Below are positions 8,036 to 49,371 of a stretch of 56,795 nt of DNA, piece after piece (the first letter of the stretch is position 1; the number at the start of each line of letters is the position of its first letter). The stretch covers positions 1 through 56,795 of the forward strand of contig CAYUJW010000002.1 of NCBI GenBank assembly GCA_964445135.1. The letters run 5' to 3'. The translations under genes and the position numbers were made by a program. A model generated the notes under the pieces. That model worked only from the letters and a program-made list of their open reading frames with translations, had not been told where the DNA came from and did no database searches. This DNA is from an uncultured Gammaproteobacteria bacterium (GTDB taxonomy: Bacteria > Patescibacteriota > Microgenomatia > UBA1406 > GWC2-37-13).

Positions 8036-8143
8036 GAGTATTAAAGCAAAGTGATGGGATACATAAAATTTGTTTAATTTAAAACCTCAATTAAATAGTC
8101 GCAAAAATTATAATGACGCTTTAATGGGCTGTGATTACTCCCT

Positions 8144-10250: not shown

Positions 10251-10304
10251 ATAATAACCTATAGTATTGACCAATGTGCCCGCCGTGCGCTATAATTGGG
10301 GCTT

Positions 10305-11459: not shown

Positions 11460-11480
11460 ATGAACATTCGTTTAAGCGCG

Positions 11481-15725: not shown

Positions 15726-15771
15726 AAAAAATTAGCCTGATTGAGGCTTTCGGTGAATTATATGCTGCGGC

Positions 15772-16062
15772 TTATTGGTGGCAGACGGCCTCCAAGAGCG
15801 ATTGTTCCCCGGCTGCGTTCATGGTCGCAACATGTGGCGCCAGATATTCGGGCTCACATAAATCAGTGCTCTGCACTGTTGTCGACATATCAATTGGCAT
15901 TCCGGTTTGTTCGATGTGTTGGCGCACTGCGTCAGACAATGAGGCTGTGGGAGGGGTCACTTCTGGTGCGCAGGATGTGGAAAGCGTAAATAATCCAACA
16001 AGTGCCAGGCGTGCGACGAGCTTTGGTGAATGTTCGGGGTTGGATGAATGTATTTCTTTCAT
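15772..16062 (-). CDS. small putative lipoprotein
   Basis: Trimmed to MKEIHSS...LALVGLFTLSTSC (signal peptide with a Cys, lipobox-like). TATACT lies 12 nt upstream. The gene sits immediately upstream of the giant gene on the same strand. Confidence 0.45.
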   Translation of the reverse strand: MKEIHSSNPEHSPKLVARLALVGLFTLSTSCAPEVTPPTASLSDAVRQHIEQTGMPIDMSTTVQSTDLCEPEYLAPHVATMNAAGEQSLLEAVCHQ

Positions 16063-16204
16063 AGTCAGAGCCCCAGTATACAAAAAATAGGCCTTGTATG
16101 CAATACTATAAGACAGGAAAATACCTACTAAATATAAATGTGGAGATGTCAATACGCTGTGTAGACAGCCGCAAGTGAAGAAAGAGTGATTCGCAGCATA
16201 TATT

Positions 16205-16328
16205 GCTATGAGTTTTGTGGGTGAAGATTGTCATGGTGTGTGGTGGCCAGCTCAGGGAGGGCTGGTTTGAAGCATAAGGCGCTTCGCCATGACAATCTTC
16301 GTCAATATCTTTTTTGTTCTTTTTTTTG
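16205..16328 (+). ncRNA. candidate small RNA or orphan intrinsic terminator: 14-bp perfect stem, inner hairpin, then a T-tract
   Basis: The arm gaagattgtcatgg (16223-16236) pairs with ccatgacaatcttc (16287-16300). The inner stem is ccagc/gctgg (16247-16251 / 16261-16265). Downstream is tcttttttgttcttttttttggg. TATATT lies near 16197. No plus-strand CDS sits upstream. Confidence 0.35.
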
Positions 16329-16385
16329 GGTTTTGGGGTATGCGGACATTTCGTCTACATGAGAACGGACTTATTACAAGTAGAA

Positions 16386-16405
16386 GTTGAACGGTCAAGT
16401 TCAAC
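16386..16405. promoter_or_regulatory. palindromic site GTTGAAC-N6-GTTCAAC (operator candidate)
   Basis: Perfect 7-bp arms. The flanks tagaaGTTGA...TCAACAG are shared with the site at 17395-17413. Confidence 0.5.
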
Positions 16406-16463
16406 AGATACTTTTATCCCTTTTGCTTTTTTAAAAAAAGCGCAGTGGACAAAGCGGTGGGCG

Positions 16464-16534
16464 GGATTGTGGGGAGGCCGATATGTAGGCTTCCGCGTCG
16501 TTGTTATGGCAAGCCAAAAGGCTCCCCACAATCC
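16464..16534. repeat. long hairpin (13-bp perfect stem, 45-nt loop)
   Basis: ggattgtggggag (16464-16476) pairs with ctccccacaatcc (16522-16534). Confidence 0.7.
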
Positions 16535-16702
16535 ACACCATCACGGCAATAGTTGGCTACCCGAGGGTGGTCAACGCGCCTGTGGGGCAAAGCCCCCTCA
16601 GTGATCGAGAAGTGATCGAAGCGATCACGGACACGCTTCCATGGCTTATTTCAGCGCAGGACAGCAAAGGCGTAACATATTCGTCACGTTGGATAAATCG
16701 CG

Positions 16703-17356
16703 CTACGGGAGCTGCCAGAACCCAAGCTCTGCGACTCGTGCAGGGAGCTGAGGATTGATTTCATGCAGCTTCTCTCGGAAGCGTGGATCCGTGTTGAACG
16801 CGCCGATTGGCCCGCTCATGTCTGCGGTATACGCTCCGATGTCGATTTGGGTTTTTTTCTTTCCCCCTTTATTACTCCCACTCATGAGAATAAAAATGAG
16901 TGCTAGTACTGCGACTGCGGCGGCGAGCAAAAACATGGCGATAATTGCCAGCAATTTGATCACCTCCCAAATGGCGACGAAAAAGTTTTCATCGTGGCCA
17001 TCGTAGTCTTCAATGTTGCTTGCCCGCCATGAGCTGGTGTTGTAGAATTCTACAACACGAAAAACGATTCCATCGTTCTCAGACACGGCGAACATTTCGC
17101 GCGTGGGGAGCGCGAAGAACGCAAAAAACGTTCCATTGCGTTCGATCCTCGAGATTGTTGGTGCCCAGCGGACTCCAGAAGGAAGCGTTACCGCTTCGCC
17201 TTGGACCGCGTACCCCTTGAGGTACAAGCCAGGAATAGCCTCTCGCCAGTCTGAGGCATCGTTCGTCGAAGCTCCCAATTGACTTGGCAAAGCAGGTGCA
17301 ACGGCCGCTGCGGCTGCAACTCCCATCAAGGAGAGCAATCTTCTTCTACTCAGCAT
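16703..17356 (-). CDS. paralogue A of an uncharacterised signal-peptide/single-TM protein family
   Basis: SRRRLLSLMGVAAAAAV (Tat-like), conserved block VRWAPTISRIERNGTFFAFFALP, TM helix LLAIIAMFLLAAAVAVLALIFIL followed by KGGKKK, and a C-terminal tail ending FWQLP. About 50% identical by eye to 18319..19020 over the ectodomain. Confidence 0.75.
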   Translation of the reverse strand: MLSRRRLLSLMGVAAAAAVAPALPSQLGASTNDASDWREAIPGLYLKGYAVQGEAVTLPSGVRWAPTISRIERNGTFFAFFALPTREMFAVSENDGIVFRVVEFYNTSSWRASNIEDYDGHDENFFVAIWEVIKLLAIIAMFLLAAAVAVLALIFILMSGSNKGGKKKTQIDIGAYTADMSGPIGAFNTDPRFREKLHEINPQLPARVAELGFWQLP

Positions 17357-17394
17357 TCTTCCTTCTTTCGCTTCTTTACATTCTTACGATAGAA

Positions 17395-17413
17395 GTTGAC
17401 CGGAGAGGTCAAC
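17395..17413. promoter_or_regulatory. palindromic site GTTGACC-N5-GGTCAAC about 40 nt upstream of paralogue A (operator overlapping a -35-like TTGACC)
   Basis: Perfect 7-bp arms. On the minus strand TTGACC is followed by TAAGAAT and then the ATG at 17356. Confidence 0.5.
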
Positions 17414-17513
17414 AGGCACACCTCCAGACGGCTTTGCAAGCATTGCGTGCTCACTATCCGCGCCGGATGGTCATGATAATCCCATAGGGATCCTGTTTTA
17501 GTGCGTCAGCCTA

Positions 17514-18260
17514 TTAAAGCTGGACGTATGAGCCGGGCAGTCTGCCAGTCTCGAGCCAGTAGCCGGCGTTGGGGTCGGCCCTCATCTCGCGCCCGAATTC
17601 GGCGTTGTTGCTCGCAAGCCAGCTCATGTCGTGGTGAAACGATTCGTGACCACTCACTTCGTTGGGTCCGAACATCCACATGGCAAGGCCCACGTTGTGC
17701 CACTGGTCGAACTGACCGAGCTCGTTGAGCTTGTCCTTGTCCTTGGGTCGTGGACGGTCCTTCATGATCTGATCGAACTTGTAGTTGAACCAGAGCTTCA
17801 TGATGTAGATGATGACGATCAGCACGAGCGCGATGAGCAGAAGCACTGCAAGAAGCATCAGCGGGTCGTTCCACAAGAAAACGAGAACTTCGATGGCTTT
17901 TGCCACCAAATCAAGTGTGGACATGGTCCACCGGTGGTTTTCCCAGAGGTTTCCAGCGGGAGACCAGACCGAGCCGTCGGCTTCGCTGATTGCCACTTCG
18001 CGGCCGCCGAAGGTGAGGAGCGCATAATAGCGTCCGTCTGCGGGTTGGATGCGTCGCAACGTCGGCTGGTAAAACAATCCGTCGTGCTGGATGGTCGGTC
18101 CCGTGATCACGAGGCCTGCGTGGTAGAGAGCACCGTACATGAAGCGAGGAGTTTCCCCGACTTCAGTTGACGTCGCATGCGCAACGTTCGGAAGCGCGAC
18201 AGCAAGTGCTGCGCCTCCTATGAGACCAAAAAGGCCTCGTCGGCTCATTTGCTGATTCAT
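17514..18260 (-). CDS. paralogue B (divergent) of the same family
   Basis: Trimmed to MNQQMSRRGLFGLIGGAALAVA (twin-arginine-like). It has the same order of parts: block YQPTLRRIQPADGRYYALLTFGG, a TM helix, a basic stretch, and a C-terminal tail NAEFGREMRADPNAGYW. The track start at 18437 would overlap paralogue C. Confidence 0.7.
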   Translation of the reverse strand: MNQQMSRRGLFGLIGGAALAVALPNVAHATSTEVGETPRFMYGALYHAGLVITGPTIQHDGLFYQPTLRRIQPADGRYYALLTFGGREVAISEADGSVWSPAGNLWENHRWTMSTLDLVAKAIEVLVFLWNDPLMLLAVLLLIALVLIVIIYIMKLWFNYKFDQIMKDRPRPKDKDKLNELGQFDQWHNVGLAMWMFGPNEVSGHESFHHDMSWLASNNAEFGREMRADPNAGYWLETGRLPGSYVQL

Positions 18261-18318
18261 GTTTATCATTACCTTTCGTTGGCTAATTGTTTCTGGTTTC
18301 CCGCCAGAATTTTTCCGC

Positions 18319-19020
18319 CTAGGGCATGACCCAGATGCCTTGGTTGGCACCGAGTTCCGTGAGACCTGGATATTGCCGAAGCTCTGCTCGGAAATCGGGC
18401 TCGGCATTGAAGGTCTCCGTGAACCAGGTTGGGTCACGCTTCCACGCGCCGGCCTCGATCTGCGTCTGCTCCATGTTTCGTCGACCCTTGGGGGTCTTCG
18501 GAGCTTTCCAGATCCAGATGAGAATCAAGATCGAGAGCACCACGGCAAACAGCACCGCAAGTGCGATCACGATTTTTACCAGAAGAATGATGAGTTCCGC
18601 CAGCCAAATGCCGTTTTCCGTGGCGTCGGCCAGGGTGGCCGGGTGCCAGGTGGCAGAATTGTAGTAGTCGTTTACCACCCACAAGATGTCATCGTCCTCA
18701 GAGGCTGCCCAGAGGCGGCCGTTCGGAGTGGCGAAGAAAGCGAAATAGCTCCCTCCGCGCTCGATTCGGATGATCGTGGGCGTCCAACGGACTCCATTGG
18801 TGACCACACTGGTCCATTGAACCGGATACCCCGAAAGGTACACGGATGGAATGGCGGACTGCCAGTCGGTTGCAGAAGCAGTGCTCTGCGTGGAAAAAAC
18901 CGAAGACGCGCTGTCTGCGGTTTGGTTAGCAGCGGCGGGGCTGCCGTATGTGGCGACTGCGGGTGCAGTCACCAGCGTCACTGCGCAAAGCAGATGACGT
19001 GGCTTCAATCTTCTGAACAT
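18319..19020 (-). CDS. paralogue C of the same family
   Basis: Signal peptide, block VRWTPTIIRIERGGSYFAFFATP, TM helix, KAPKTPKGRR, and a tail NAEPDFRAELRQYPGL...IWVMP. A strong SD AAGGAGG (complement of 19031-19037) lies 10 nt before the ATG. Confidence 0.75.
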   Translation of the reverse strand: MFRRLKPRHLLCAVTLVTAPAVATYGSPAAANQTADSASSVFSTQSTASATDWQSAIPSVYLSGYPVQWTSVVTNGVRWTPTIIRIERGGSYFAFFATPNGRLWAASEDDDILWVVNDYYNSATWHPATLADATENGIWLAELIILLVKIVIALAVLFAVVLSILILIWIWKAPKTPKGRRNMEQTQIEAGAWKRDPTWFTETFNAEPDFRAELRQYPGLTELGANQGIWVMP

Positions 19021-19115
19021 GATATTGGTGCCTCCTTATGCACCTAGCACAAACTCCCGCTTTGGAGCTGTGCCTTTTTTGAGTCCTCATCCTTGAGGCA
19101 ATTGACCCATCCTTA

Positions 19116-21859: not shown

Positions 21860-21942
21860 TATGGGCGCAGTATTTACTACAGGTCTAATCCAAAGTAATC
21901 ATGAGCACTTCTCATATGGTGCTTTTTCGTCTATAATAGCGC

Positions 21943-23043
21943 ATGACAACAATCTCAAGTCCATTTTTTGATCAACAAGAAATCGATGCAGTCGCCGCAG
22001 TTATGCGCGCGGGCAATATTGTGCAGGGTGAACAATGCAAATCGTTTGAAAAAAGCGTTGCTGATTATTGTGGTAGAAAATATGCAGTTGCCACCTCAAG
22101 CGGGACTACTGCAATGTTGCTTGCTGCTCAAGCCCTTGCGGTCAGCAAAAATAGTAGCTTTATCACTACTCCATTTACATTTGTTGGTACCGTAAATCCA
22201 TTGCTCACCCTTGGCGCGAGACCAATTTTTGTTGATATCAATGAAGATGACTATTGTCTTGATGCGACTCAGATTGAAGATCGATTGTCCGATGATACTG
22301 ATTTGATTATTCCGGTCGATCTCTTTGGACAAGTGTGTCAGATGGACGCAATCATGGATGTGGCCAAACGACACAATCTACTTATTCTTGAGGATGCATG
22401 TCAATCATTTGGAGCAACATACCAAAATAAAAAAGCTGGCGCATTTGGTGATATTGGCGCATTTTCTTTTTATGCTACAAAAACAATTACGACAGCAGAG
22501 GGCGGAATGATTGTGACGGACAATGAGCACTATGCCAATCAAATTCGGGAATATCGAAATCATAATCAGAGTGATTTGGGTGACTACAATTATTTGGGTA
22601 TTGGGGGCAATTATCGAATGACAGATATTGCCGCGGCAATCGGACTAGTTCAGCTTGGTAAAATTGACACCATACTATCCCGACGTCGTGCAAACGCACA
22701 AGTCTATATTCGTGAATTGGCAAATATTGAAGGGATCCACTTACCCCGCACAAATCCAGAAGGTGATCACACATACAATCTTTTTTGTATGCGTGTTGAT
22801 TCTGCACACCGAATTGGTCGCGATGCGTTGGTACAAGTACTTCGCGCAAACTACGTAGAAGCGAAAGTGTATTACCCCCGGGCACTTCATGAATATGCAT
22901 TTATGGCACATTATGGTTATAAAAAGGGCGACTTTCCCGTGGCTGAAAAAGCAGCAAGCGAACTGATTGCGATTCCTGTGCACCCTTCACTTCGTGATGA
23001 AGAAGTGCTGCGCATTGCGGCAATTATTACAGACAACTCATAA
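21943..23043 (+). CDS. DegT/DnrJ/EryC1/StrS-family PLP-dependent (keto-sugar or inosose) aminotransferase
   Basis: FEKSVADYCGRKYAVATSSGTTA, LILEDACQSFGA, and FSFYATKTITTAEGGMIVT with the PLP lysine. Confidence 0.9.
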   Translation: MTTISSPFFDQQEIDAVAAVMRAGNIVQGEQCKSFEKSVADYCGRKYAVATSSGTTAMLLAAQALAVSKNSSFITTPFTFVGTVNPLLTLGARPIFVDINEDDYCLDATQIEDRLSDDTDLIIPVDLFGQVCQMDAIMDVAKRHNLLILEDACQSFGATYQNKKAGAFGDIGAFSFYATKTITTAEGGMIVTDNEHYANQIREYRNHNQSDLGDYNYLGIGGNYRMTDIAAAIGLVQLGKIDTILSRRRANAQVYIRELANIEGIHLPRTNPEGDHTYNLFCMRVDSAHRIGRDALVQVLRANYVEAKVYYPRALHEYAFMAHYGYKKGDFPVAEKAASELIAIPVHPSLRDEEVLRIAAIITDNS

Positions 23044-23044
23044 T

Positions 23045-24022
23045 ATGAAAAATTTAGCATTCATTGGCTGCAATCATATTTTTAAAAAACATAAAGCAGC
23101 AATAGATCAGGTTGAAGGACTTCGAATTATTGCCGTTTCTGATGTTGATGAAAGAGTGCTGAACGAGCAAGTTGAGATGCTTGCTTGCGAAGGCTTCTCT
23201 GATTATCGTGAAATGATTGCAAAGCTTGGCGCAAACATTGATTATGTGGTGATTGCAACTCCAAGCTTTCTGCACTACGAGCAAGCTCAGTATGCGCTGC
23301 GCCACGGTTGTCATGTGCTGCTTGAAAAACCTCCGGCACTTACCTACACAGAATTTCAAAACTTATTGACGGTTGCAAAAGAACACAAGAGACAATTGTA
23401 TTCTGTGTTGCAGCTGCGGTATGACCCGACATTTCTGATTGTTGCGCGCGCCATCCAAGCTGGTCTTATCGGGACAGTCACAGCAACGTCGCTTTCGGTG
23501 CTCTTTCAAAGAGATCGTGCATACTTTGATTCATGGAGATCAGATGTAAAAAAAAGCGGCGGTATTTTGTACGATATCGCCATTCATTATCTTGACTTTT
23601 TGCTCGGCGCTATGGGTGATGAAATTTCATCCTCCGTCACCAAAACCTATTCCCATTTAAATCAAGCAATGTATGATACCGTGCATTCGATTGTTGATTA
23701 TAAAAACGGCGCATCTGGGTCGATCTTTGTGACGGCCGCAGCACAACCTAAGACACTTGGAACCAACCTTACGCTTCTTGGAACGCATGGCAGTATTGTT
23801 TTGGGCGGATTACAGCTTAACTCCATTGAGCGAGTTGAATTTACAAGCGAGGCCAACCGCGCACAATGGGATAAATTGGTGGCCGAGATGAAGGGTGCAA
23901 ATAAGCAAGAACAAAATGCCTTTACGTTGATGTATCGGGACTTGCTGCTTGGACATGGCGTGGAAATTATGAGCGTTGCTCCAGTCATGCGATCGTTGGA
24001 AATAATAACAAACAGCATATGA
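23045..24022 (+). CDS. Gfo/Idh/MocA-family NAD(P)-dependent oxidoreductase
   Basis: N-terminal Rossmann segment LAFIGCNHI and the hallmark VLLEKPPALT (EKP motif). The ATG at 23045 lies 2 nt after the aminotransferase stop. Confidence 0.85.
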   Translation: MKNLAFIGCNHIFKKHKAAIDQVEGLRIIAVSDVDERVLNEQVEMLACEGFSDYREMIAKLGANIDYVVIATPSFLHYEQAQYALRHGCHVLLEKPPALTYTEFQNLLTVAKEHKRQLYSVLQLRYDPTFLIVARAIQAGLIGTVTATSLSVLFQRDRAYFDSWRSDVKKSGGILYDIAIHYLDFLLGAMGDEISSSVTKTYSHLNQAMYDTVHSIVDYKNGASGSIFVTAAAQPKTLGTNLTLLGTHGSIVLGGLQLNSIERVEFTSEANRAQWDKLVAEMKGANKQEQNAFTLMYRDLLLGHGVEIMSVAPVMRSLEIITNSI

Positions 24023-25314
24023 AGAGAATACTCGCGAATGCACAATTTTTTGGTTTTGCTCCAAGCTCGCTTCTGCTGGCCACGCTTGAGGAGCTGACAC
24101 TCACATACCCCAACCAATTTCTGATTGATATCGTGTCAAATGAGCACATTCGCGCACTTTGTGCTTCGCGAAAAAATATGCCATACAATCTTGTTGATTT
24201 GAATGATGTGCCGCTTCTCGACTATCTACTTGAAAGCAGCGCGTGCCTCACATACGATGCATTTCTTTCATATTACGATCCAACGCTCATGCTTTATGCT
24301 TGGTTTTTTGATAAACCACGCATATTGTATGATGGGCTTTTTCATTTTTGGGATGAACAAAGCTTTCGACACACCCTCATGCAAGACGTTGCGCAAGTTG
24401 AGGAATATAAGCGCACACTTGATGTTGGGAAATTGCGAGAATGGCACAATGCGCTTTGGATAAAAAATCCCCACGAAATGCTTTTTGCGGGACACATTTT
24501 TGCAGATGTGCAATTTGCAAGAAAGGCTCCTGATTTAGATCATCGTCTCAGTGAATATCCACAGTTAAAAAAGAAGATAATACCTGTTGGATGTATCATT
24601 CATGCGCCAAAACACCGCCCACTGCCTGAAGTGGAGCGTGATATGATCCTTGTTTCTCTGGGCGGAAGTCTCAATCCTATTGTGACATTTGAGCAGAATA
24701 TATTTTATGCCAAGACGGTTATCAAATTTATAAAGGAAATGTTGCCGCTGCTCTCCCCTCGCCCAGCCACATGCTGCGTGGTGGTGCACCCACTCATTCA
24801 CCAAAGATTGCAAACGGATTTGCCAGATTACGCAGAGATCGATATTGTTTCTTCAGTTGATCAGGATACGTACTTTTCTTGGCTTCAAAAAAGTATCGTG
24901 GCATTTGTCCCACCAAGCTACACAACTCTACAAGAATGCGCATATTTTGAAACTCCCGTTTTTCTTTTGCCAGAGCAAAATGGTGGCCAACCACACTGTT
25001 TCACACTTTTGAGCAAAAGCGGTTATACGACTGAATACAGCATGACGGTTTCTGGCCAACTAGGCACCACGTATGGTGAGTTTGAGGTGCAAGAATTATA
25101 TGCGGATATTGGACGTTTATATGATCAATATAAACAGCGCACACAGATACTGTCACAAATTCGTAATTTTTATACACTCGCAACTGAATCAGAATCACGC
25201 TCCATATTAAACAGTCGGCAAAAGTCGGTTATCTGCCACATGATGGGTGATTTTAATGGCGCAGCAGATATTGCAAACACGATCCACTCGTATCTCTTTT
25301 CCCATCATGAATAA
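24019..25314 (+). CDS. putative GT-B fold glycosyltransferase (GT1/GT28-like C-terminal half)
   Basis: ILVSLGGSLNP and TTLQECAYFETPVFLLPEQNGGQPHCFTLL resemble the GT1/MurG-type donor-binding region (GGS...E...G.P.i..P...Q..N). Overlaps both neighbours by 4-8 nt. Weak recognition only. Confidence 0.5.
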   Translation: MKRILANAQFFGFAPSSLLLATLEELTLTYPNQFLIDIVSNEHIRALCASRKNMPYNLVDLNDVPLLDYLLESSACLTYDAFLSYYDPTLMLYAWFFDKPRILYDGLFHFWDEQSFRHTLMQDVAQVEEYKRTLDVGKLREWHNALWIKNPHEMLFAGHIFADVQFARKAPDLDHRLSEYPQLKKKIIPVGCIIHAPKHRPLPEVERDMILVSLGGSLNPIVTFEQNIFYAKTVIKFIKEMLPLLSPRPATCCVVVHPLIHQRLQTDLPDYAEIDIVSSVDQDTYFSWLQKSIVAFVPPSYTTLQECAYFETPVFLLPEQNGGQPHCFTLLSKSGYTTEYSMTVSGQLGTTYGEFEVQELYADIGRLYDQYKQRTQILSQIRNFYTLATESESRSILNSRQKSVICHMMGDFNGAADIANTIHSYLFSHHE

Positions 25315-26248
25315 TCACTTCGACACATATCTACAGAAAGTTCATTCTCACTCAACCGATAGTGAAGTGGTGATGAAGGTGGCAGCTCATATGATAGGTG
25401 CTGTGCCAAGTGGCATGAAGAGAATTATAAAAGGTGAATCTCATGAGGTGTATGAGGCACAAATGTTTGAATCGAATAAATCATATATCATACGTATTGC
25501 CCCAGAAAGTAGCGCTCACTTTGCATCAGAAAATTGGGCGATGCAGCGGGTCTCACAAGTCGGTGTGCCAGTGCCATCCCCCGTTGCGATTCATGTAGCG
25601 CGTGTGGCAACAACTCAACTTGCATTTTCGCTGTATCCAAAAATACATGGGTATACAGAAGATGTGTGGGGTCCACAATTTGACAACTCTTTGTATAAGG
25701 ATCTGGCGGTTGAAGCAGGCGCATATTTGCGCAAGATTCACTCCGTTTCAACATCCGGTTATGGACCGATAAACGAACATGGTGTGGGCCGCTTTAATAC
25801 GTATTTGGATCGAATAATGAGCGTACTTCAGGACTTAGGTGCATATGAGAGTCATCTTGCAAAGCTTTGCATACAGTTTTATGTTGATCGTGCACATAAG
25901 CTTTCAAACGTACCTGCGCATTTGATTCATGGTGATTATGGACCAAAGCATTTTGTCATCGAGGATGGGGTTATTCGGGGAATTATCGATTGGGAAGGTG
26001 TTGAGTCTGGGCCATATTATATGGATTTTGGACGATGGAGTTATTATTATCAGGACAAATTGCCGCTTGACTGGTTGCTTGAGGGTTACGGCATCACAGA
26101 GGGACAAAGGTCAGAAGTGAATGATCTATTGCCGCTTATTGAGCTGTTTTGGGGCTGCCATTCACTGCTCTATTATTGTCGCCACATGCGCCACGAACAG
26201 GCGATGGAAGATAAACGTAAAATCACAAAGATATTACGAAGTGCTTAG
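25307..26248 (+). CDS. aminoglycoside-phosphotransferase (APH)/kinase-fold protein
   Basis: HLIHGDYGPKHFVI (HGDxxxxN-like catalytic loop) and IIDWEGVESGPYYMDF (IDWE..G....D). Trimmed to the ATG at 25307, which overlaps the upstream stop. Confidence 0.8.
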   Translation: MNNHFDTYLQKVHSHSTDSEVVMKVAAHMIGAVPSGMKRIIKGESHEVYEAQMFESNKSYIIRIAPESSAHFASENWAMQRVSQVGVPVPSPVAIHVARVATTQLAFSLYPKIHGYTEDVWGPQFDNSLYKDLAVEAGAYLRKIHSVSTSGYGPINEHGVGRFNTYLDRIMSVLQDLGAYESHLAKLCIQFYVDRAHKLSNVPAHLIHGDYGPKHFVIEDGVIRGIIDWEGVESGPYYMDFGRWSYYYQDKLPLDWLLEGYGITEGQRSEVNDLLPLIELFWGCHSLLYYCRHMRHEQAMEDKRKITKILRSA

Positions 26249-27955
26249 GTGTTTTTTTGGCTTGATAAGCACATCTTCAAGAACCAAATAATCAATATTG
26301 TTTTCTAAAAAACAAATCATCGCATCTTCTGGTGTGTGTACGATTGGTTCGGCATTATCATTAAATGATGTGTTGAGAATGAGCGGAATGCCAGTCAACG
26401 AGTAAAACTCGTTGATTAAATTGTGATACTTAGGGTTTATTTCTTTGTGCACCGTCTGAAGTCTGCCTGTTTTGTCCTCATGCATGATCTCGCGGACCAG
26501 CTCCTGTTTATCGGTTTTAACCGGCGCAATAAACAGCATGTATGGACTTTCTCGTAATTTTTCAGAGAGCTCGAAATAAACGTGCGCATGTTCAGCAAGC
26601 ACCGATGGAGCAAATGGTCGAAATGATTCTCGCTTTTTAATAATGTGATTAATTCGATCTTTCATTCCAGCTTTTCCAGGATGTGCAAGAATACTTCTGT
26701 TGCCAAGTGCTCGCGGTCCAATTTCACTTTGCCCCTGGTACCATCCAATAATATTTCCCTCAGAAAGTAGCTGTGCAGTAGTTTTTTCTATTGATTCAGG
26801 ATGCATGATCTCAATATCTTTTTGATATTTGTGCAGCACACCTTCTATCGCACTGGTAAATGCGGGGCCAGAATATGGAATGAATGGGTGAGCTGTTCGA
26901 AAAGATTTTTTCTCAAGCATATTTTTGACCCACAATACACCGCCGATTGAAAGGCCACAATCTGAGACCATTGGTGGCACGTGAAGATTGTGAACCTCAC
27001 TTTGTTCAAGAAGATGGGTGTTGCTGACACCATTGAGTGACACTCCACCTGCAAGACACACATTATTAATTCCATATTTTTTTGCTGCATTTTGAATGAT
27101 CTTTGCGATGGTCTGCGAGGTAAATTCTTGTATGCTCAGAACAAGATCGTAGTAGTCTTCAAAGATGTGAGCAAACTCAGCTGGCGGAGTTTTCCCCAAA
27201 TAGGTATGCAACAATGGGCTGGCAAAAGGAATGTCCAGTTGCACAGATAGATAGTTTGCAAGCACCGCATTTCCATTAAAGGTATTTCCAAACATTTGAT
27301 GGAGTTGTGGTGGGTTTTTTTCTGAATCTGCAAATTGTGGAAAATATGAATCGTAGCGCACAAGGTTGTTTAGAAACGGTAAGTATCTTGGTGTTTTGCC
27401 CCAAGCAGTAAGTGCCATAGTTTTTCCTGAATCGTTTGCGCCACTGAATCCGAGCAAAATATTGACCGCTTCCCAGAGTCGCCCAAGTGAAAATTGCGCA
27501 TCCATTTGGTCAATTTGCGTAAGGGTGTCCCCTCTTCCGATTGCCAAGCGTCCACTGAGACCGTCTCCCACATCATCAATTGAAAGCACAAGTGCCTCAT
27601 CAAAATTGGAGGTGTAATAGCTGCTTGCTTGATGCGCCATGTGATGGTCGAGCAACAGGTGTGTTTTGCCCTGTGATAAAGATTCAAAATAATCCTGTAA
27701 TTCGTGTCCGTGAATATGAGTGTTGTGATAATTTTGAGTTCCAACCCAGATATATGTGTCAACAGAATTTGTATCAATTTGCATGGATTGCAAAAGAAGT
27801 TTAAGTGAGTCTGGGTCAGTGAGTCCGGCATACTTTTTTCGCGTCACCCGTTCTGTGGCAAGATATGATAGTGATGTATTGTGTAGATGAGCCACACTCC
27901 CCTCGTGCCAAATTCCGGCCACCGCAACAACTGAATTATGTGTAGTTTGGTTCAT
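26234..27955 (-). CDS. NodU/CmcH/TobZ-family carbamoyltransferase
   Basis: VAGIWHEGSVAHL, LLLDHHMAHQASSYY (HHxAH), CLAGGVSLNG, DKTGRLQTV, LNTSFNDNAEPIV. The ATG at 27955 forms an ATGA overlap with the upstream GT2 stop. Confidence 0.85.
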   Translation of the reverse strand: MNQTTHNSVVAVAGIWHEGSVAHLHNTSLSYLATERVTRKKYAGLTDPDSLKLLLQSMQIDTNSVDTYIWVGTQNYHNTHIHGHELQDYFESLSQGKTHLLLDHHMAHQASSYYTSNFDEALVLSIDDVGDGLSGRLAIGRGDTLTQIDQMDAQFSLGRLWEAVNILLGFSGANDSGKTMALTAWGKTPRYLPFLNNLVRYDSYFPQFADSEKNPPQLHQMFGNTFNGNAVLANYLSVQLDIPFASPLLHTYLGKTPPAEFAHIFEDYYDLVLSIQEFTSQTIAKIIQNAAKKYGINNVCLAGGVSLNGVSNTHLLEQSEVHNLHVPPMVSDCGLSIGGVLWVKNMLEKKSFRTAHPFIPYSGPAFTSAIEGVLHKYQKDIEIMHPESIEKTTAQLLSEGNIIGWYQGQSEIGPRALGNRSILAHPGKAGMKDRINHIIKKRESFRPFAPSVLAEHAHVYFELSEKLRESPYMLFIAPVKTDKQELVREIMHEDKTGRLQTVHKEINPKYHNLINEFYSLTGIPLILNTSFNDNAEPIVHTPEDAMICFLENNIDYLVLEDVLIKPKKHLSTS

Positions 27956-28929
27956 ATCGTTAATTCTTCTTTTGTAATATTCCACCGTTCCAATACGCCA
28001 ACTTTCCCCTGCTCTTTTTGAATACGCGATGCTTCTTCAAGTTGGGCGTAAGATATGTGATTTTCGTGTAAAACTTTCATAAGAAATGAGCGTTGGGTAA
28101 TTTCATCATCCGGGCTCCCATGCGCTGATGTTTGATCCCCAGTTATTCGATATGCATACCCGTTCGTATTTACGGGGAGCATATTCTGGCAATTCTTGCG
28201 ATATCCCTCTGCTGCCAGAAGTAATAATAGTCCAAAGTCATCGTGTGATTTTAAATCAAGTGGCCATCCTCCCACACGAATAATTGCTTGCTTCTTAAAA
28301 GCTCTCAGGCCAATTGCATAGGCAAATACCATAAGATCAAAAAATGAGTATGGTTGAGCAGCTCGTATTTTATACCTATGTGAGCGTTTAGTAAATTGCA
28401 TTTGGTGCATGGGGGTTGGATAAAAATCATTTTCTTCATCAATCCACTGTAAGGTGGCGGGCAGCTTTTCAAGTTCAATTTGGAAAATAATATTTGAGAA
28501 TGCAAAGTCACATTCACTATTGCCAAGCATCGTTTTATACATAAGCGAAGTCGCATGAGGGTCGCAAAGATAGTCATCAGAATCGATAAAAAAGAGGATG
28601 TCGCTTTGTGCCAAATACACGCCCACGTTTTGTGGCAATGCTTCTGATCCGCTATTTTTTTGAAGTCGAGCGAGCGTCATCTTGTCAGAGTGAGGCAATG
28701 ATAATATGGATGACAGGTCGCCTTGTGTTGAGGCATCATCTACGATCACTATTTCATAACTGTGATCACCTACTTGCTGACCAATTGATGCAATAAGCTG
28801 GGGAAGGTGTGCAATGCGATTATATGATGCGACAATTATGCTGAAATCGACTGTATCGCTCCGTTTTGACGTGGCCACTATGTCGACAGCTATAGGATCA
28901 ATTTGGAGCCATGGAATAGAAATATTCAT
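27952..28929 (-). CDS. family-2 glycosyltransferase
   Basis: FSIIVASYNRIAHLPQLIASI, IVIVDDASTQGD, and FFIDSDDYL (DxD). Confidence 0.85.
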   Translation of the reverse strand: MNISIPWLQIDPIAVDIVATSKRSDTVDFSIIVASYNRIAHLPQLIASIGQQVGDHSYEIVIVDDASTQGDLSSILSLPHSDKMTLARLQKNSGSEALPQNVGVYLAQSDILFFIDSDDYLCDPHATSLMYKTMLGNSECDFAFSNIIFQIELEKLPATLQWIDEENDFYPTPMHQMQFTKRSHRYKIRAAQPYSFFDLMVFAYAIGLRAFKKQAIIRVGGWPLDLKSHDDFGLLLLLAAEGYRKNCQNMLPVNTNGYAYRITGDQTSAHGSPDDEITQRSFLMKVLHENHISYAQLEEASRIQKEQGKVGVLERWNITKEELTI

Positions 28930-28935
28930 GAGGCA

Positions 28936-29658
28936 TTATATAATTTTTGCATTTTGTAGTGCTTGGATGAGTTCGTCATACGTAGTGTTTTGAGAGTGCT
29001 CATATAATAAATATTCTGCGGGTTTGTTGGCCAGATCAGGCAGTTGATACGCGCGAATTGATTCAAGCTCAGGCTGGTTGAAATATGAGATGTCAGCCTG
29101 TTTCGTGTGAAGCAGTGAAAGTGCATCCTTCTTTTTCTGTAGAATCTGGGGCGACAGCTTTAATTGGTGTTGTCCGTTTGGGAAAGTATTGTGCACATAT
29201 GTATGTGCATCAGTCTTGTGATAGAGCGCATATTCCAACATCTCTTCAATCGTATGGTGACGGCCGACTATGAGGGATAAAATCTCATGATCAATATGTC
29301 CACCTTCGTACGTTGGAAACACCACGCACGTTGGACGATGGGCAGATAGAATGTTTTCAATTTCACGTGCCATGCTTTCAATATTCAGAAGACTTTTCCC
29401 ATCAGGAATGGCAAGTTCAATGTACTGATCAATGTTTGCAGCGGCACAGACCCTACGTACCTCGCGGTTTAGCTGTATGCGATAATCGGATGGCTTGATG
29501 TCGCGATATGCATTTGGATAGTCAATGGGCGACGGCATATTGTCGGAGGTGCAGACAAGTATTTTTTTGCCACTCTCATTTTGTGCTAAATGCGAAAATG
29601 CACCAAGAAACACATCATCAATATGCGCGCCAAAATATACGGTCACAGAAGGATTCAT
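28936..29658 (-). CDS. PIG-L/LmbE-family N-acetyl-sugar deacetylase
   Basis: VYFGAHIDDVFLG (AHPDDE-like metal site) and EGGHIDHEILS (HxDH). Confidence 0.8.
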   Translation of the reverse strand: MNPSVTVYFGAHIDDVFLGAFSHLAQNESGKKILVCTSDNMPSPIDYPNAYRDIKPSDYRIQLNREVRRVCAAANIDQYIELAIPDGKSLLNIESMAREIENILSAHRPTCVVFPTYEGGHIDHEILSLIVGRHHTIEEMLEYALYHKTDAHTYVHNTFPNGQHQLKLSPQILQKKKDALSLLHTKQADISYFNQPELESIRAYQLPDLANKPAEYLLYEHSQNTTYDELIQALQNAKII

Positions 29659-29688: not shown

Positions 29689-30090
29689 TTAGTCGCGGGG
29701 CTTGACGAGCTTTGCGGTTCGCACGATCTTGAGGACTTCTCCATCCGGGCCGGTGAACTCATTTTTTTGAGTCATGTTGGCGTAATGATTGAGATTCTCA
29801 GATAGCAAGGTTTGGAGCTCGCGAAGATCCTCGCTGAGCGAGCGGATTTCGGTTTCGACGGCCTGGACTGCTTCTGTTTTGACGATCTTGTCTTTGGCGG
29901 CGGCTACTTGTCGCTTCACTTCTTTTTGTTGCTCTTCAACTTCTGCGTATCCAGCATCTTGCTCAAATGATTGTTTGAACATCTCTTTTTGTGTTTTTAT
30001 CTTTTCTTGTGTCTTGCGGATATCTACAAGGTAGTCTTTGATCATGGTTTCGAGGTTTAACAGTACCTCAGGTTCGATAGTTGGGTTCAT
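29689..30090 (-). CDS. hypothetical coiled-coil protein
   Basis: Highly charged K/E/Q heptad-like sequence. No motif recognised. Confidence 0.5.
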   Translation of the reverse strand: MNPTIEPEVLLNLETMIKDYLVDIRKTQEKIKTQKEMFKQSFEQDAGYAEVEEQQKEVKRQVAAAKDKIVKTEAVQAVETEIRSLSEDLRELQTLLSENLNHYANMTQKNEFTGPDGEVLKIVRTAKLVKPRD

Positions 30091-30167
30091 ACAATGAATT
30101 GAGAAAATAACTAATGATGAAGTTACAGTATAAGCAGAAAATCAAAAGAGGGCAAGGGGTGTGGGGC

Positions 30168-30320
30168 GAGTTACGAGTTACAAGTTGGTTGGTTACGGGT
30201 TACGGGTTGAGGAGTTACGGGTTACGAGTTAATTGGTTACGGGTTGAGGAGTTACGGGTTACGAGTTAATTGGTTACGGGTTGAGGAGTTACGGGTTACG
30301 AGTTAATTGGTTATGGGGTT
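30168..30320. repeat. tandem array of the 37-bp unit GGTTACGGGTTGAGGAGTTACGGGTTACGAGTTAATT (built from GTTACGR heptamers), about 3 full copies plus partial ends
   Basis: Exact copies at 30235-30271 and 30272-30308. The copy at 30191-30234 carries one extra heptamer. Degenerate copies lie at both ends. Confidence 0.9.
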
Positions 30321-31748: not shown

Positions 31749-32594
31749 TCAGTTGACCCTAACGGTGGTGGGGCGTCGCGATGCGAGCGCTCCGTGAATG
31801 GCCAGCACGATGCCAACAACAATTGCCACGAAGACCCAGGGAAGGATCGTCGCAACAGTGGTGTTCAGTCCCGTGAAGGGGAGCTGACACGAGCCGGTCT
31901 CGGCATTCCAGTAGGGGCTGGTGGGCCCACAGGTGGAAACCGTGATGGTCGGCGGGTTGGTGCTCGGCGTCGTCGGAGCCGGCGGCTGCGTGGTCGTGGT
32001 GACCGTGGTGCTGCTGCCTTCGGGCGTGGTCGTCGGCGTCGTCGTGCTCGGCGGTGCGGTCGTGGTCACAGGGACCTTGACTGCTCCACAGAATGCTTCA
32101 ACGGAGCGGTGACCCAGGTCGCGGGGCAGCTCAGGGATGTTGTAGTGGCGGTCACGGTAGTCCGTGGTCGTCGCTCGGTTGCCCTTTGCAGTGCACAGCT
32201 TGGGATCGATGGTGTACGGTTCTTCCGAGCCGTTCATCTGGTCATCCCAGTGCATCATGGCGGTGCGGCCCGCGGGGATCTCGACGCTGGCATTGTAGAG
32301 CCCATTGGTTTGGAACCAAGGAATCAGCTCGGTGCCGTCATCGAGGATGACCGCGAAGTACCCGTCGTACCGTCCGTCTTCAACCAGGTTTCCCAGGATG
32401 TCGACTTGACTTCCCACAAATGCGTGGACTTCAACCTCAACGGTCGTCGTCTTCAGCTCCTGCGGAACGGGGGTCGGGGTGGCGGTCACCGTGGTGGCCG
32501 TCGGGGTGGAGCCGGTGTCGGCGGATGCCGATCCGGCAGATGCTGCGACTCCGAAGAGCGCTGCAGCGATGATGATCATTCCTTTTCTGAACAT
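31749..32594 (-). CDS. LPXTG-type cell-wall-anchored surface protein
   Basis: Signal peptide MFRKGMIIIAAALFGVAASAGSASA, a globular domain, and a Thr/Pro-rich stalk. The C-terminus is LPFTG plus the hydrophobic helix TILPWVFVAIVVGIVLAI plus RRP, a classical sortase sorting signal. A hand count of nt 31981-32040 gives 44/60 G+C. Confidence 0.8.
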   Translation of the reverse strand: MFRKGMIIIAAALFGVAASAGSASADTGSTPTATTVTATPTPVPQELKTTTVEVEVHAFVGSQVDILGNLVEDGRYDGYFAVILDDGTELIPWFQTNGLYNASVEIPAGRTAMMHWDDQMNGSEEPYTIDPKLCTAKGNRATTTDYRDRHYNIPELPRDLGHRSVEAFCGAVKVPVTTTAPPSTTTPTTTPEGSSTTVTTTTQPPAPTTPSTNPPTITVSTCGPTSPYWNAETGSCQLPFTGLNTTVATILPWVFVAIVVGIVLAIHGALASRRPTTVRVN

Positions 32595-33311
32595 GGTGTT
32601 TACTTCCTTCTTGTTAGTAGATGGTGGTATTACGCTTGCTCAGTTTGCCTTGCCTCTTTTTTAAACTCCAAGGTGGAGCCTTTGCCGAGGTTCGACAAGA
32701 TGCGGGTATGACTTTTTTCTTCACCTCCATATGTCCTTTCGCCGCGTTCCTGTGGCCGTACTACATCAACCTCCATGTCGATGCTTTGTATGCGTATCCC
32801 TTTGCATTTTCAGAAAAGAAGTCTCATATTAGTGAGGCTCAATCTTACTCGTGGCCGGGAAGGCACATACGGGACCTAGTAAATAGGGGCCCATTTTTGG
32901 TATGTCTTTTTCCATGGTACGCATCTGCGGCTTTTGGGCAGCAGCATACAACTCAATGAGCGATATCCAAATGAATGAATATCTGAGGCCTTTTTACGGG
33001 TCTCCTCTTTGGGTGTGTGGAATCATGGACACTGTTATACGGATGTCAGGAATCGGTTACGGCAACGGTTATGACCTGCCCGCAGATGCTGCGCATCAAG
33101 CGCTGCAGGCGGGAGCTCGTTTCGGTTTGGTGTGTCGGTTACGGTATAGTGCCTGATGCACGATACCCTTCAACCTTACCCATACCAGCTTCGATACCCT
33201 ATCCGTTACCCTTACCTGGCAATCATATAGCAGTGCCCAATCATCATGTGCACTTGAAAAGAGTGAATATAGTTTAGTCCTAACCCAATTGTTAAGCACC
33301 AACCAAGTTCA

Positions 33312-35159: not shown

Positions 35160-36230
35160 ATGGCAAGTAAGGAGCATGAATCGGCACGCATTGAACAAAG
35201 AATTACCCCCCCTGATGTGCTGGCCCATCGCAACGAGCTGGTGCGGAGTCTGGATGATCGCGCGGGTGAGCTGGCGGACAAATATCTGCTCCCTGAAGAA
35301 AAGCTGTGGTTTCCGGATAAATTTATCCCACCCTCGCTTGAGGGAAAGATTGATCTGCGAGACCGGGAAGGTGTGCGTGTGCCACGACTATTGGCGGTCG
35401 TGTTGGTTGGTAATGGAATCACTGAGGATGGACTCTCAATGTTTGAAACGATGCTTAACCGAGCCGAAGGTATGGCAGATGATACCGGAGCAGATGATAC
35501 TGGGCATGCAAAGTGGTCGCGTGGGTGGACTGCTGAGGAGCTTCGTCACGGACGTGTCATTCGAAGCTATTTGGAGTGTGTTCCTACTGTTAATTTGGCA
35601 GCAGTTGATCGGATTCAACATAAGTATATCGCTGGCGGATTTGATCCGGGAATCAGGCGAGATCCGTATCGATTAGTTGTTTACCCATCCATGCAAGAGC
35701 CCGCCACAGAAACGCCGCACAAACGAACAGGACACACGGCCCACGATCACGAACTTCTTGTGCTCGCAAAGACATCAATACAAGTTGGGTCTGATGAAGG
35801 GCGACATGGCAATTACTATGCGGATATGGGGAGAGAGATAATTGCCCTCGATCCGGAGGGGTTTATCGATGAATATCACTATATTGCGCATGAGCGCATG
35901 ATGGTGATGCCGGGGGCAAACATGGACGGATTTGATGTGTTTATGAATGCGGCAATCGCGATGGATATGTACGGTCCGGCAGATTATGTAAAAATTGCGG
36001 CTGATTTGAACAAGCGGTGGGATCTGGAACATTTGAGTCTGTCCGGAGCGGCTGATGAAAAGCGGGAAATATTGCTGAGAAAATACACGCACAGCCGTGC
36101 TGAACGCTTGCGGGAAAAACAAACTGGCCGAAAAAAAGCCGCAGAATCACTTCTTGGCGCACGAATTCCCTGGTTGATGGATCCGGTGATCACCCAAGCC
36201 GATCTGGCCGAAGTTGGCCTGGCTGCTTAA
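35160..36230 (+). CDS. soluble acyl-ACP desaturase family (di-iron, DesA1/DesA2 or plant stearoyl-ACP desaturase type)
   Basis: SRGWTAEELRHGRVIRSYL (EExRH) and VGSDEGRHGNYY (DExRH) are the two di-iron ligand motifs. The track start is GTG at 35142; the first in-frame ATG is 35160. Confidence 0.85.
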   Translation: MASKEHESARIEQRITPPDVLAHRNELVRSLDDRAGELADKYLLPEEKLWFPDKFIPPSLEGKIDLRDREGVRVPRLLAVVLVGNGITEDGLSMFETMLNRAEGMADDTGADDTGHAKWSRGWTAEELRHGRVIRSYLECVPTVNLAAVDRIQHKYIAGGFDPGIRRDPYRLVVYPSMQEPATETPHKRTGHTAHDHELLVLAKTSIQVGSDEGRHGNYYADMGREIIALDPEGFIDEYHYIAHERMMVMPGANMDGFDVFMNAAIAMDMYGPADYVKIAADLNKRWDLEHLSLSGAADEKREILLRKYTHSRAERLREKQTGRKKAAESLLGARIPWLMDPVITQADLAEVGLAA

Positions 36231-39032: not shown

Positions 39033-39067
39033 TCTGCGACCCGGTACGTGTTTGTTGTATTCAGAAT

Positions 39068-39083
39068 AAACCTATAGTATACT
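39068..39083 (+). promoter_or_regulatory. leaderless-type promoter AAACCTATAGTATACT, 6 nt before the second sigma ATG
   Basis: TATACT at 39078-39083, ATG at 39090. Confidence 0.6.
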
Positions 39084-39089
39084 TGGTAA

Positions 39090-45622: not shown

Positions 45623-45778
45623 TGGTTGGTATGTTGGTTCCCTCTTTTCATGCAGTCTATCACCGCATAAATAAATGGGGAAAAGATTATTGTAATCCTC
45701 AGGTTGTAAATATTCAATACCAGCACTTTGCCGTATGTCCGGAGAGAGACGTCTTACTGTGAAGCGTAAAAATATGTG

Positions 45779-49343: not shown

Positions 49344-49371
49344 CAATGTGGCAGCCCAACTACAAAAATCC

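Follow-up and report, generated by a model that had tools for sequence, protein, structure and literature searches.

Organisation of the gene block

The stretch of DNA analysed here, called the window throughout, comprises 56,795 nucleotides (nt; 56.8 kb) of contig CAYUJW010000002.1, assigned in GenBank to an uncultured Gammaproteobacteria bacterium. Between positions 21943 and 29658, the listing of its open reading frames (ORFs) contains a block of 7.7 kb in which seven big ORFs follow one another with nearly no intergenic DNA and which encodes a set of sugar-tailoring enzymes. Clusters of this kind are already known; what is notable is an uncharacterised family of proteins with the GT-B glycosyltransferase (GT) fold and an unusual phyletic pattern, which associates an uncultured gammaproteobacterial lineage with bacteria of the candidate phyla radiation (CPR) and DPANN archaea. 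The genes, named g1 to g7 by position, and a promoter-like site are as follows, with the Pfam families or other basis of each assignment in brackets:

21909..21937, plus strand: promoter-like site TTCTCA-17-TATAAT, a few bases 5' of the g1 ATG (10 of 12 consensus matches)
21943..23043, plus strand: g1, sugar aminotransferase of the DegT/DnrJ/EryC1 type, dependent on pyridoxal phosphate (PLP), 366 amino acids (aa) (PF01041)
23045..24022, plus strand: g2, Gfo/Idh/MocA NAD-dependent sugar 3-dehydrogenase-like protein, 325 aa (PF01408, PF22725, PF02894)
24019..25314, plus strand: g3, GT-B-fold protein of an undescribed family, 431 aa (AlphaFold (AF2) model and Foldseek)
25307..26248, plus strand: g4, APH-fold small-molecule kinase, 313 aa (PF01636)
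26234..27955, minus strand: g5, carbamoyltransferase of the NodU/CmcH/TobZ family, 573 aa (PF16861, PF02543)
27952..28929, minus strand: g6, soluble GT2 (GT-A) glycosyltransferase, 325 aa (PF00535, PF10111)
28936..29658, minus strand: g7, de-N-acetylase of the PIG-L/LmbE family, 240 aa (PF02585)

For the measurement of the junctions, starts were picked by comparison with orthologues: ATG 23045 for g2, as set by orthologue lengths of 325-326 aa (the longest ORF opens at TTG 22967), ATG 25307 for g4 (longest ORF from GTG 25247) and ATG 27955 for g5 (longest ORF from GTG 27985). With these starts, g1 and g2 are separated by 1 nt, g2 and g3 share an ATGA and g3 and g4 overlap by 8 nt; on the other strand, 6 nt lie between g7 and g6, g6 and g5 share an ATGA, and the 3' ends of the convergent g4 and g5 overlap by 15 nt. 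The block consists of two convergent, translationally coupled operons, g1-g4 on the plus strand and g7-g6-g5 on the minus strand; a sequence-only reading of this DNA had described seven ORFs in two tight convergent operons, and the ORF listing and the junctions bear this out. The arrangement is not due to chance, because the seven genes occur in identical order and orientation in two further lineages. The promoter-like site is weak and suggestive only, 34 such sites being observed in the region for 21 expected.

Pfam assigns six of the seven proteins, g3 being the exception, and agrees with the family labels of the sequence-only reading, whose description of g3 as "GT-B-like" is backed by the AlphaFold model and Foldseek. 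All seven proteins score below the NCBIfam equivalog cut-offs, and a hydropathy scan predicted no hydrophobic segment in any of them. Intact catalytic motifs are found in g1 (PLP lysine), g2 (EKP and DxxxH), g4 (HGD and IDWE), g5 (HHxAH and GPRALGNRS), g6 (DD and DSDD) and g7 (AHxDD and HxDH).

A dehydrogenase and aminotransferase pair

The g1 protein matches DegT_DnrJ_EryC1 (PF01041) at 4e-115 and has the PLP-lysine motif SFYATK...AEGG; its orthologues, in related loci denoted here by L numbers, share 63% (L001), 72% (L004) and 44% (L024) identity with it. Its best match in the PDB is 7b0d (8e-70), deposited as a glutamine-scyllo-inositol transaminase, followed by perosamine synthetases (6e-65), with WbpE (1e-49) and BtrR-type enzymes more distant. 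A literature search found nothing relevant on PDB 7B0D or on the families of the block in combination. A pathway for the nonulosonic acids pseudaminic or legionaminic acid (Pse/Leg) was considered, PseC being the top NCBIfam match of g1, and was rejected: the score is 299 bits, below the cut-off of 423, and no PseB, PseI or synthase gene is present.

The g2 protein has the N- and C-terminal domains of the GFO_IDH_MocA family (PF01408, PF22725, PF02894) and aligns over its full length at about one-third identity, 265 residues being aligned, with the UDP-N-acetylglucosaminuronic acid (UDP-GlcNAcA) 3-dehydrogenases WlbA (3q2i, 1e-33; 3q2k, 5e-30). Among solved structures, WbpB is matched at about 1e-19 to 1e-20 and inositol dehydrogenases at about 1e-15, and on the IolG model g2 scores 93 bits against a cut-off of 355. 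Because WlbA scores far above the inositol dehydrogenases, the comparison favours a nucleotide sugar, oxidised at C3, over a cyclitol as the probable substrate of g2, and so weakens the inositol alternative that the sequence-only reading had named beside a sugar.

The broader proposal, that dehydrogenase and aminotransferase act together to turn a hydroxyl into an amine, holds: a WlbA-like 3-dehydrogenase gene and a DegT aminotransferase gene are adjacent, as they are, at family level, in the pairs WbpB/WbpE, WlbA/WlbC and GnnA/GnnB. The window differs from these pairs in that g1 is nearer to 7b0d than to WbpE and in that no N-acetyltransferase, epimerase or O-antigen machinery follows downstream.

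The kinase and the minus-strand enzymes

The g4 protein matches the APH family (PF01636) at 3e-19. Its AF2 model, with a predicted local distance difference test score (pLDDT) of 90.7, is nearest in Foldseek to the hygromycin B kinase APH(4)-Ia (template-modelling (TM) score 0.73-0.81), then to the gentamicin kinase APH(2'') and macrolide kinases, and neither WaaP, NahK nor methylthioribose (MTR) kinase is among its top 50 matches. The catalytic aspartates of HGD and IDWE are invariant, and a conserved HGD(Y/F)GPKH motif has His where Asn is usual. Relatives are few; the nearest outside the lineage are from a DPANN archaeon (34% identity) and Saccharibacteria (about 28%), and all carry HGD(Y/F)GPKH.

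The g5 protein contains Carbam_trans_N (PF16861, 2e-68) and Carbam_trans_C (PF02543, 3e-31) and lies equally far from 7xb6, NovN, GdmN and TobZ (1e-61 to 1e-68). Its clade is made up of five 90%-identity clusters, the window's own included, at 48% identity or more, all others being at 39% or less. The placing of g5 in a characterised clade was ruled out by the equal identity, about 33%, to TobZ, NovN, GdmN, 7xb6 and the rhizobial and Streptomyces plasmid enzymes. Neither g4 nor g5 falls in a clade of known housekeeping role, a placement that would have told against the sequence-only reading, nor does either fall in a known antibiotic clade. The tailoring resembling that of aminoglycosides, which that reading had proposed, was upheld in so far as the nearest structures to the g4 model are the aminoglycoside kinases APH(4)-Ia and APH(2''), and not as regards g5, which is not TobZ-like in particular.

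The g6 protein matches Glycos_transf_2 (PF00535, 2e-12) and PF10111 and has the motifs VVDD and DSDD; in the PDB it matches only the N-terminal domains of TarS and TarP. It also carries the subfamily motif NSGSEALPQN, common to the GT2 proteins encoded next to g3 homologues in Peribacteria loci. A role with polyprenyl phosphate, like that of ArnC or GtrB, was rejected for g6 as no hydrophobic segment is predicted. The g7 protein matches PIG-L (PF02585) at 1e-12 and, weakly, 2ixd and BshB in the PDB, and its zinc-ligand motifs AHIDD and GGHIDHE are kept in orthologues. Nod-factor synthesis by NodC, NodB and NodU differs from what is seen here, as g6 is a soluble protein with a score of 16 bits on the NodC model, the deacetylase is of the PIG-L and not the CE4 type, and g5 reaches 144 bits on the NodU model, for a cut-off of 1000.

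The more specific product suggested from the sequence, a classical aminocyclitol aminoglycoside or a thiol of the mycothiol/bacillithiol type, deserves comparison at this point. All of the seven families but the GT2 are represented in the kanamycin and tobramycin clusters (TobZ, TobN/KanN, TobM1/M2, TobD2/S2, aph), which combine an LmbE-type deacetylase acting after transfer of N-acetylglucosamine (GlcNAc) with an O-carbamoyltransferase and an APH kinase; furthermore, the best PDB match of g1 is the structure deposited as a scyllo-inositol transaminase, and APH(4)-Ia, nearest to g4 in fold, is a kinase of a cyclitol hydroxyl. By contrast, the cluster of the window has no 2-deoxy-scyllo-inosose (2-DOI) synthase, no cyclitol genes and no exporter, its GT-B protein bears no GT4 signature and is GT1/GT28- or epimerase-like, and it possesses an extra, soluble GT2. 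No Pfam match of the dehydroquinate (DHQ)-synthase type was found among window ORFs of at least 150 aa or in the related loci, which leaves the 2-deoxystreptamine version without its 2-DOI synthase. As to the thiols, mycothiol, bacillithiol and glycosylphosphatidylinositol (GPI) pathways use a GT-B GlcNAc transferase and then a PIG-L/LmbE deacetylase, and the cluster resembles them in that its GT-B and PIG-L genes travel together across distant phyla, but the window ORFs include no cysteine ligase (MshC/BshC), no inositol-phosphate synthase and no GT4 transferase of the MshA, BshA or KanM type, and g7 scores 26 bits on the BshB1 equivalog, far below the cut-off of 182.5. Because these scaffold, ligase and GT4 genes were not found, the BshB1 test failed and g2 is UDP-sugar-like, we rank this explanation lowest and regard it as very unlikely.

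A GT-B family without a Pfam model

No Pfam or NCBIfam match was obtained for g3. An AF2 model computed from six sequences (pLDDT 84, predicted TM-score (pTM) 0.82) has the GT-B fold according to Foldseek, with UDP-GlcNAc 2-epimerases, GT1 enzymes and MshA matched at about 1e-11 to 1e-13 and 10-16% identity; the GT1 matches in the PDB comprise SpnG, CalG2/4, OleD, GtfB, YojK and plant UGTs. A word-indexed search of 5.8 billion proteins retrieved five relatives of g3, and a profile search run exhaustively on 1.84 billion representatives delineated a family of 341 clusters. Weak Pfam matches were seen in some of 27 members (Glyco_trans_1_3 in six, the best at 9e-6; Epimerase_2 in six; Glyco_tran_28_C in three), and the profile of these 27 members gave no link to solved structures, with a best E-value of 0.02 against PDB sequences. 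The family has the conserved motifs SLGGS and PEQNGGQP, which we take to resemble donor-binding elements of GT1/GT28 enzymes, as well as an HP/NP motif resembling the "HxNP" of epimerases. From the model and these motifs, the likeliest identity of g3 is a glycosyltransferase akin to GT1/GT28, in a family that has not been described.

The same fold could belong to a nucleotide-sugar epimerase or hydrolase, in which case the block might be a module for sugar activation or salvage: g3 would hydrolyse or epimerise a UDP-N-acetylhexosamine (UDP-HexNAc) in the manner of NeuC/GNE, g4 would phosphorylate the freed sugar and the other enzymes would remodel the amino sugar for unlinked pathways. The rank of UDP-GlcNAc 2-epimerases among the top Foldseek matches, the weak Epimerase_2 matches, the HP/NP motif and the 8-nt overlap of g3 with g4 are in line with such a role, as are the three independent cases in which g3 or a homologue adjoins an APH-fold kinase gene (the window, L020/L021 and L008) and a nearby gene resembling GalT or Ap4A phosphorylase in L008 and L030. 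We nevertheless judge it improbable: SLGGS and PEQN recall donor-binding motifs of GT1/GT28, the best of the weak Pfam matches is to Glyco_trans_1_3, the kinase is dispensable in L024, the fold of g4 is nearest to antibiotic kinases and not to anomeric sugar kinases, and the carbamoyltransferase, the GT2 and the PIG-L deacetylase would be left without a role.

Conservation and genomic contexts

Two further lineages have the whole block with equal flanks, the proteins being 48-86% identical: L004 (57-86%) and L001/L007 (48-71%; L002 and L003 encode identical proteins, and L007 is labelled "uncultured Gammaproteobacteria"). The shared flanks consist of an EVE-domain gene, a nitroreductase gene and an HxlR gene on one side and, on the other, genes for a 133-aa coiled-coil protein and a 23S-IVS protein. 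A broad scan of metagenomes for further loci gave eight.

Partial versions of the block are also found. In L024, a phosphoribosyltransferase (PRTase)-PIG-L-GT2-carbamoyltransferase operon converges on DegT-GFO-g3, so that six block genes are present and the kinase is missing; in L022/L023, an operon of the same composition converges on g3 and a gene for a 280-aa unknown protein, with four block genes and no recognisable kinase. The PRTase of these three loci is Apt/Hpt-like, at scores below cut-off. In Peribacteria/Patescibacteria, g3 homologues (25-29% identity) are followed directly by a GT2 gene, with DegT before them in most cases and PIG-L near. Altogether, g3 and a g6-type GT2 are adjacent in seven distant loci (about six distinct contigs), often with DegT and PIG-L and once with a carbamoyltransferase, in L015, where the order is GT2-carbamoyltransferase-g3.

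Around the g3/GT2 pair of Peribacteria/Patescibacteria, clusters of about 15 kb encode soluble enzymes (L009 5802-21055, L013 4189-19132 and L011 321-11317): three DegT proteins, two radical-SAM (rSAM) enzymes with SPASM domains, a B12-dependent rSAM enzyme, a formyltransferase, epimerase/dehydratases, a methyltransferase, PIG-L and Ham1, with GlmS near. No membrane proteins are encoded in these clusters, which by their gene content suggest that these CPR bacteria have an elaborate pathway for amino sugars. Another recurrent block (L008 99-4435, L020 1015-4473 and L030 10001-13427) has the order g3 homologue-(APH kinase)-a protein of about 195 aa weakly resembling Nuc_deoxyrib_tr-peptidyl-tRNA hydrolase-GalT/Ap4A-phosphorylase-like protein, a synteny which hints that the g3 family may be tied to nucleotide or nucleoside chemistry. 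Genes of the Nuc_deoxyrib_tr family (PF05014) lie near g3 homologues clearly in L026/L027 and weakly in L008. In L005, the g3 homologue is found near a GT9 heptosyltransferase-like gene, a GT2 gene and a GFO gene.

Hydropathy scans covered the window and eleven loci (L001, L004, L009-L011, L013, L015, L016 and L022-L024), and within several kb of the cluster no multi-pass membrane ORF was found in any of them; Pfam scans of the flanks detected no exporter (Wzx/Wzy, ABC) and no initiating phosphoglycosyltransferase in or beside it. The sequence-only reading had noted that the block contains no Wzx/Wzy, no nucleoside diphosphate (NDP)-sugar dehydratase and no 2-DOI synthase, which is correct, and this now extends to about 10 kb on each side in more than ten related loci, in none of which a multi-pass membrane protein adjoins the cluster. 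The idea of that reading would have failed had the genes been routinely part of flippase-bearing loci for O-antigen, teichoic acid or S-layer glycans; neither the window nor the eleven loci show this. Likewise, the 56.8 kb of the window contain no waa, lpx, msbA, waaL or heptose genes, nor do the stretches of about 10 kb around the cluster in the gammaproteobacterial-type loci.

Base composition of the block

The GC content of the block is 42.7%, against 47.7% for the window. At third codon positions (GC3), the seven genes range from 0.33 to 0.42 (mean 0.38), to be compared with a mean of 0.48 in the other 39 ORFs, of 49% GC (Mann-Whitney p = 1e-4), and the contrast recurs in L001 (43.9% versus 52-56%) and L004 (43.8% versus about 49%). 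The low spot counts first reported, 25 of 60 at 24181-24240 and 18 of 60 at 26281-26340, are exact on recount, and the suggestion of a GC-poor, possibly acquired block agrees with the low GC observed in three lineages. The block thus stands out in composition as a distinct island, and the common ancestor of these lineages already had it. Its composition and the CPR/DPANN affinities of g3, g4 and g6 fit with an ancient horizontal acquisition. A plasmid or phage origin was tried and rejected, since tblastn of the g3 protein found no match among 72,556 plasmids and 50,697 phage records. LPS (lipopolysaccharide) and O-antigen loci are typically GC-poor, and composition therefore does not separate the two main interpretations considered below.

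Two proposed products: a free glycoside or an envelope decoration

The interpretation that we prefer, with a probability of roughly 45%, is that the block encodes a self-contained cytoplasmic pathway to a small amino-sugar glycoside, aminoglycoside-like or hexosyl-nucleoside-like, the acceptor of which would be encoded elsewhere. The set of chemical steps is well supported and comprises keto-mediated amination, two glycosyl transfers, de-N-acetylation, carbamoylation and phosphorylation. In the order and with the substrates that we propose, g2 would oxidise a sugar hydroxyl, most likely at C3 of a substrate of the UDP-HexNAc type, and g1 would transaminate the resulting ketone to an amine; g3 and g6 would add one sugar each, g7 would strip the N-acetyl group from a HexNAc residue and so expose a second amine, g5 would carbamoylate a hydroxyl using carbamoyl phosphate and ATP, and g4 would phosphorylate the glycoside, either as a step of the pathway or for self-protection.

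That the product may be a free, soluble small molecule is suggested because all the enzymes are soluble and no envelope or export gene is linked to them in any lineage, because the module is found in organisms without LPS and because the fold of g4 is antibiotic-kinase-like. It is suggested also because characterised PIG-L/LmbE enzymes (MshB, BshB, BtrD/KanN, TunE and the deacetylase of GlcNAc-phosphatidylinositol) act on small GlcNAc-glycosides, and because relatives tie the module to rSAM genes and to genes for the handling of nucleobases and nucleotides, those beside g3 homologues in other genomes encoding two Nuc_deoxyrib_tr proteins, a PRTase, GalT/Ap4A-phosphorylase-like proteins and Ham1. 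A last reason is that the 4-amino-cytosylglucuronic acid (4-amino-CGA) core of gougerotin is made by a like trio of a GT, a dehydrogenase and an aminotransferase (gouA/F/H) (PMC12835213). The pathways of the gougerotin/blasticidin type and that of puromycin share this amino-hexosyl logic with the cluster, a resemblance of logic only; the likeness to hexosyl-nucleoside pathways extends to the PF05014 enzymes and the Apt/Hpt-like PRTase that adjoin g3 relatives, but the cluster of the window itself includes no PF05014, PRTase or peptide-ligation genes.

Several observations weigh against a free glycoside. No 2-DOI synthase, inositol-phosphate synthase, base-releasing hydrolase, exporter or pathway regulator is encoded in or beside the cluster of the window, and g3 could, as said, be an epimerase or hydrolase and not a transferase. 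Gram-negative clusters that combine GTs with sugar-tailoring enzymes mostly serve the envelope, the nearest structural relatives of g2, namely WlbA and WbpB, are LPS-sugar 3-dehydrogenases, and the L005 homologue of g3 is near the GT9-like gene. Finally, the LPS core cluster of Pseudomonas combines these very enzyme families (PMC8005017, PMC6048251).

The block may thus serve instead to tailor an envelope glycoconjugate, resembling an LPS core or, in CPR bacteria, another envelope glycan, an explanation that we consider a serious one although its odds fall well short of even. The GTs would extend lipid A-core at the cytoplasmic face, g2 and g1 would provide a 3-amino sugar donor, g7 would deacetylate a HexNAc, g5 would carbamoylate and g4 phosphorylate the glycan, and export by unlinked MsbA and Lpt would make a flippase unneeded. 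In the Pseudomonas core oligosaccharide cluster (PA5001-PA5010: wapO, wapH, PA5003, dnpA/PA5002, PA5006, wapQ/P, waaP, wapG), wapO-wapH-PA5003-dnpA is one transcription unit which, at family level only, unites a carbamoyltransferase, a GT and a PIG-L protein as the minus-strand operon does, next to the kinases WaaP, WapP, WapQ, PA5006 and PA4998 and a galactosamine (GalN) transferase (PMC8005017, PMC6048251). There too, kinases and a GT-B transferase stand alongside, the enzymes work at the cytoplasmic face and the host is gammaproteobacterial; that cluster, which does contain msbA and waaL, lacks both a Wzx flippase and a Wzy polymerase (PMC8005017, PMC6048251). Relatives of the organism from which the window comes bear the label Gammaproteobacteria; moreover, g6 is nearest to enzymes of the TarS, TarP and EpsD type, the L005 homologue of g3 has GT2 and GFO genes as well as the GT9-like gene in its vicinity, some members of the g4 clade carry precomputed matches to Kdo/WaaP families, low GC is typical of LPS loci, and the absence of an exporter, a regulator and a scaffold gene agrees with this explanation.

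The cluster of the window differs from this precedent in several respects. The Pseudomonas genes sit among waaC, waaF, waaP, msbA, waaL and hldE, none of which is near the cluster, whose flanks contain instead the EVE-domain gene, the nitroreductase, HxlR and the small coiled-coil protein. The Pseudomonas set is without the DegT/GFO amination pair, the g4 kinase is APH(4)-like and nearer in fold to antibiotic kinases than to WaaP, and DnpA is a membrane-associated protein of 473 aa (PMC6048251) whereas g7 is soluble and has 240 aa. Outside the lineage, g3, g4 and g6 have their nearest relatives in CPR bacteria and DPANN archaea, organisms without LPS, the Apt/Hpt-like PRTase of the divergent operons plays no part in core assembly, and g5 shows no more than 39% identity to anything beyond its five-member clade. 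The sequence-only reading, which had rated a soluble small product as plausible as a surface polymer, was right on the anatomy of the cluster but too specific on its meaning, and it overlooked the Pseudomonas LPS core (PMC8005017, PMC6048251). With this precedent and the points above, a small molecule and an envelope product are therefore both plausible.

Other features of the window

The gene for the 133-aa coiled-coil protein (29689-30090) lies upstream of g7 on the same strand, after a gap of 30 nt, and has a GC3 of 0.53; its product is 98% identical in L004 and 87% in L001, well above the 50-86% of the cluster genes, and its GC3 is likewise higher than theirs. It looks like a core gene beside the island and may share a promoter with the minus-strand operon. 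Just outside the cluster, between this gene and that for the 23S-IVS protein, the intergenic DNA at 30167-30317 contains a tandem repeat of 37 bp (3.2 copies, 98% matches) with GGTTACG-like sub-repeats.

A second glycan-related group occupies positions 47682-56363 and encodes a DUF2079 membrane protein with eight hydrophobic segments, an EamA transporter, a GT2 (PF00535, 1e-29), a 110-aa protein with four transmembrane segments (Phage_holin_4_2/PF04020), a hydrolase resembling glycoside hydrolase family 5 (GH5), an NAD epimerase/dehydratase, an unknown ORF and an NTP transferase; the only gene of the NDP-sugar dehydratase family in the window belongs to it. A link between the cluster and this group was considered; the two are 18 kb apart and of different composition, the loci retrieved from relatives end short of the corresponding downstream region, and they are treated as separate.

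At the opposite compositional extreme from the cluster, ORFs of higher GC (52-60%), one of them of 1414 aa, occur at 9009-19047, 31749-32711 and 36227-37552 and have zero Pfam matches. Two tandem paralogue-like genes at 37632-40361 (466 and 423 aa) have as their sole domain a sigma-70 region 2, near the C-terminal half, preceded by long N-terminal regions without domain match. A GNAT acetyltransferase gene at 7945-8614 (GC 38%, GC3 0.255), directly downstream of tRNA-Ser(GGA), could represent a small islet that entered at this tRNA. Lastly, tRNA-Leu(TAG) (45778-45862) lies on the strand of a Na+/H+ exchanger gene (43637-45856) and overlaps the 5' end of its longest ORF, so that the true start of the gene must be further downstream.

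Significance for the organisms and the family

If the block serves in LPS-core tailoring, it would constitute a portable cassette of low GC for the addition of amino, carbamoyl and phosphate groups. Decorations that alter charge in this way are important to the stability of the outer membrane and to the resistance against cationic peptides. Should a free glycoside be the product, the block would represent a pathway of the aminoglycoside or nucleoside type outside actinomycetes and bacilli, and one without a canonical cyclitol synthase. A bolder form of this proposal, which we hold to be unlikely, is that the product would be an undescribed class of bioactive cationic glycoside, similar to aminoglycosides or hexosyl-nucleosides, with a 3-amino sugar, a free hexosamine amine, an O-carbamoyl group and a phosphate, made with a new GT-B family, shared between one uncultured lineage of gammaproteobacteria and ultra-small CPR/DPANN organisms and acquired horizontally by the former, the APH(4)-like kinase providing self-protection.

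To our knowledge, little specialised metabolism has been described in Peribacteria/Patescibacteria, in which the GT-B/GT2 core recurs, and a free-glycoside pathway would also give a function to a GT-B family of about 340 sequence clusters that has no Pfam model.

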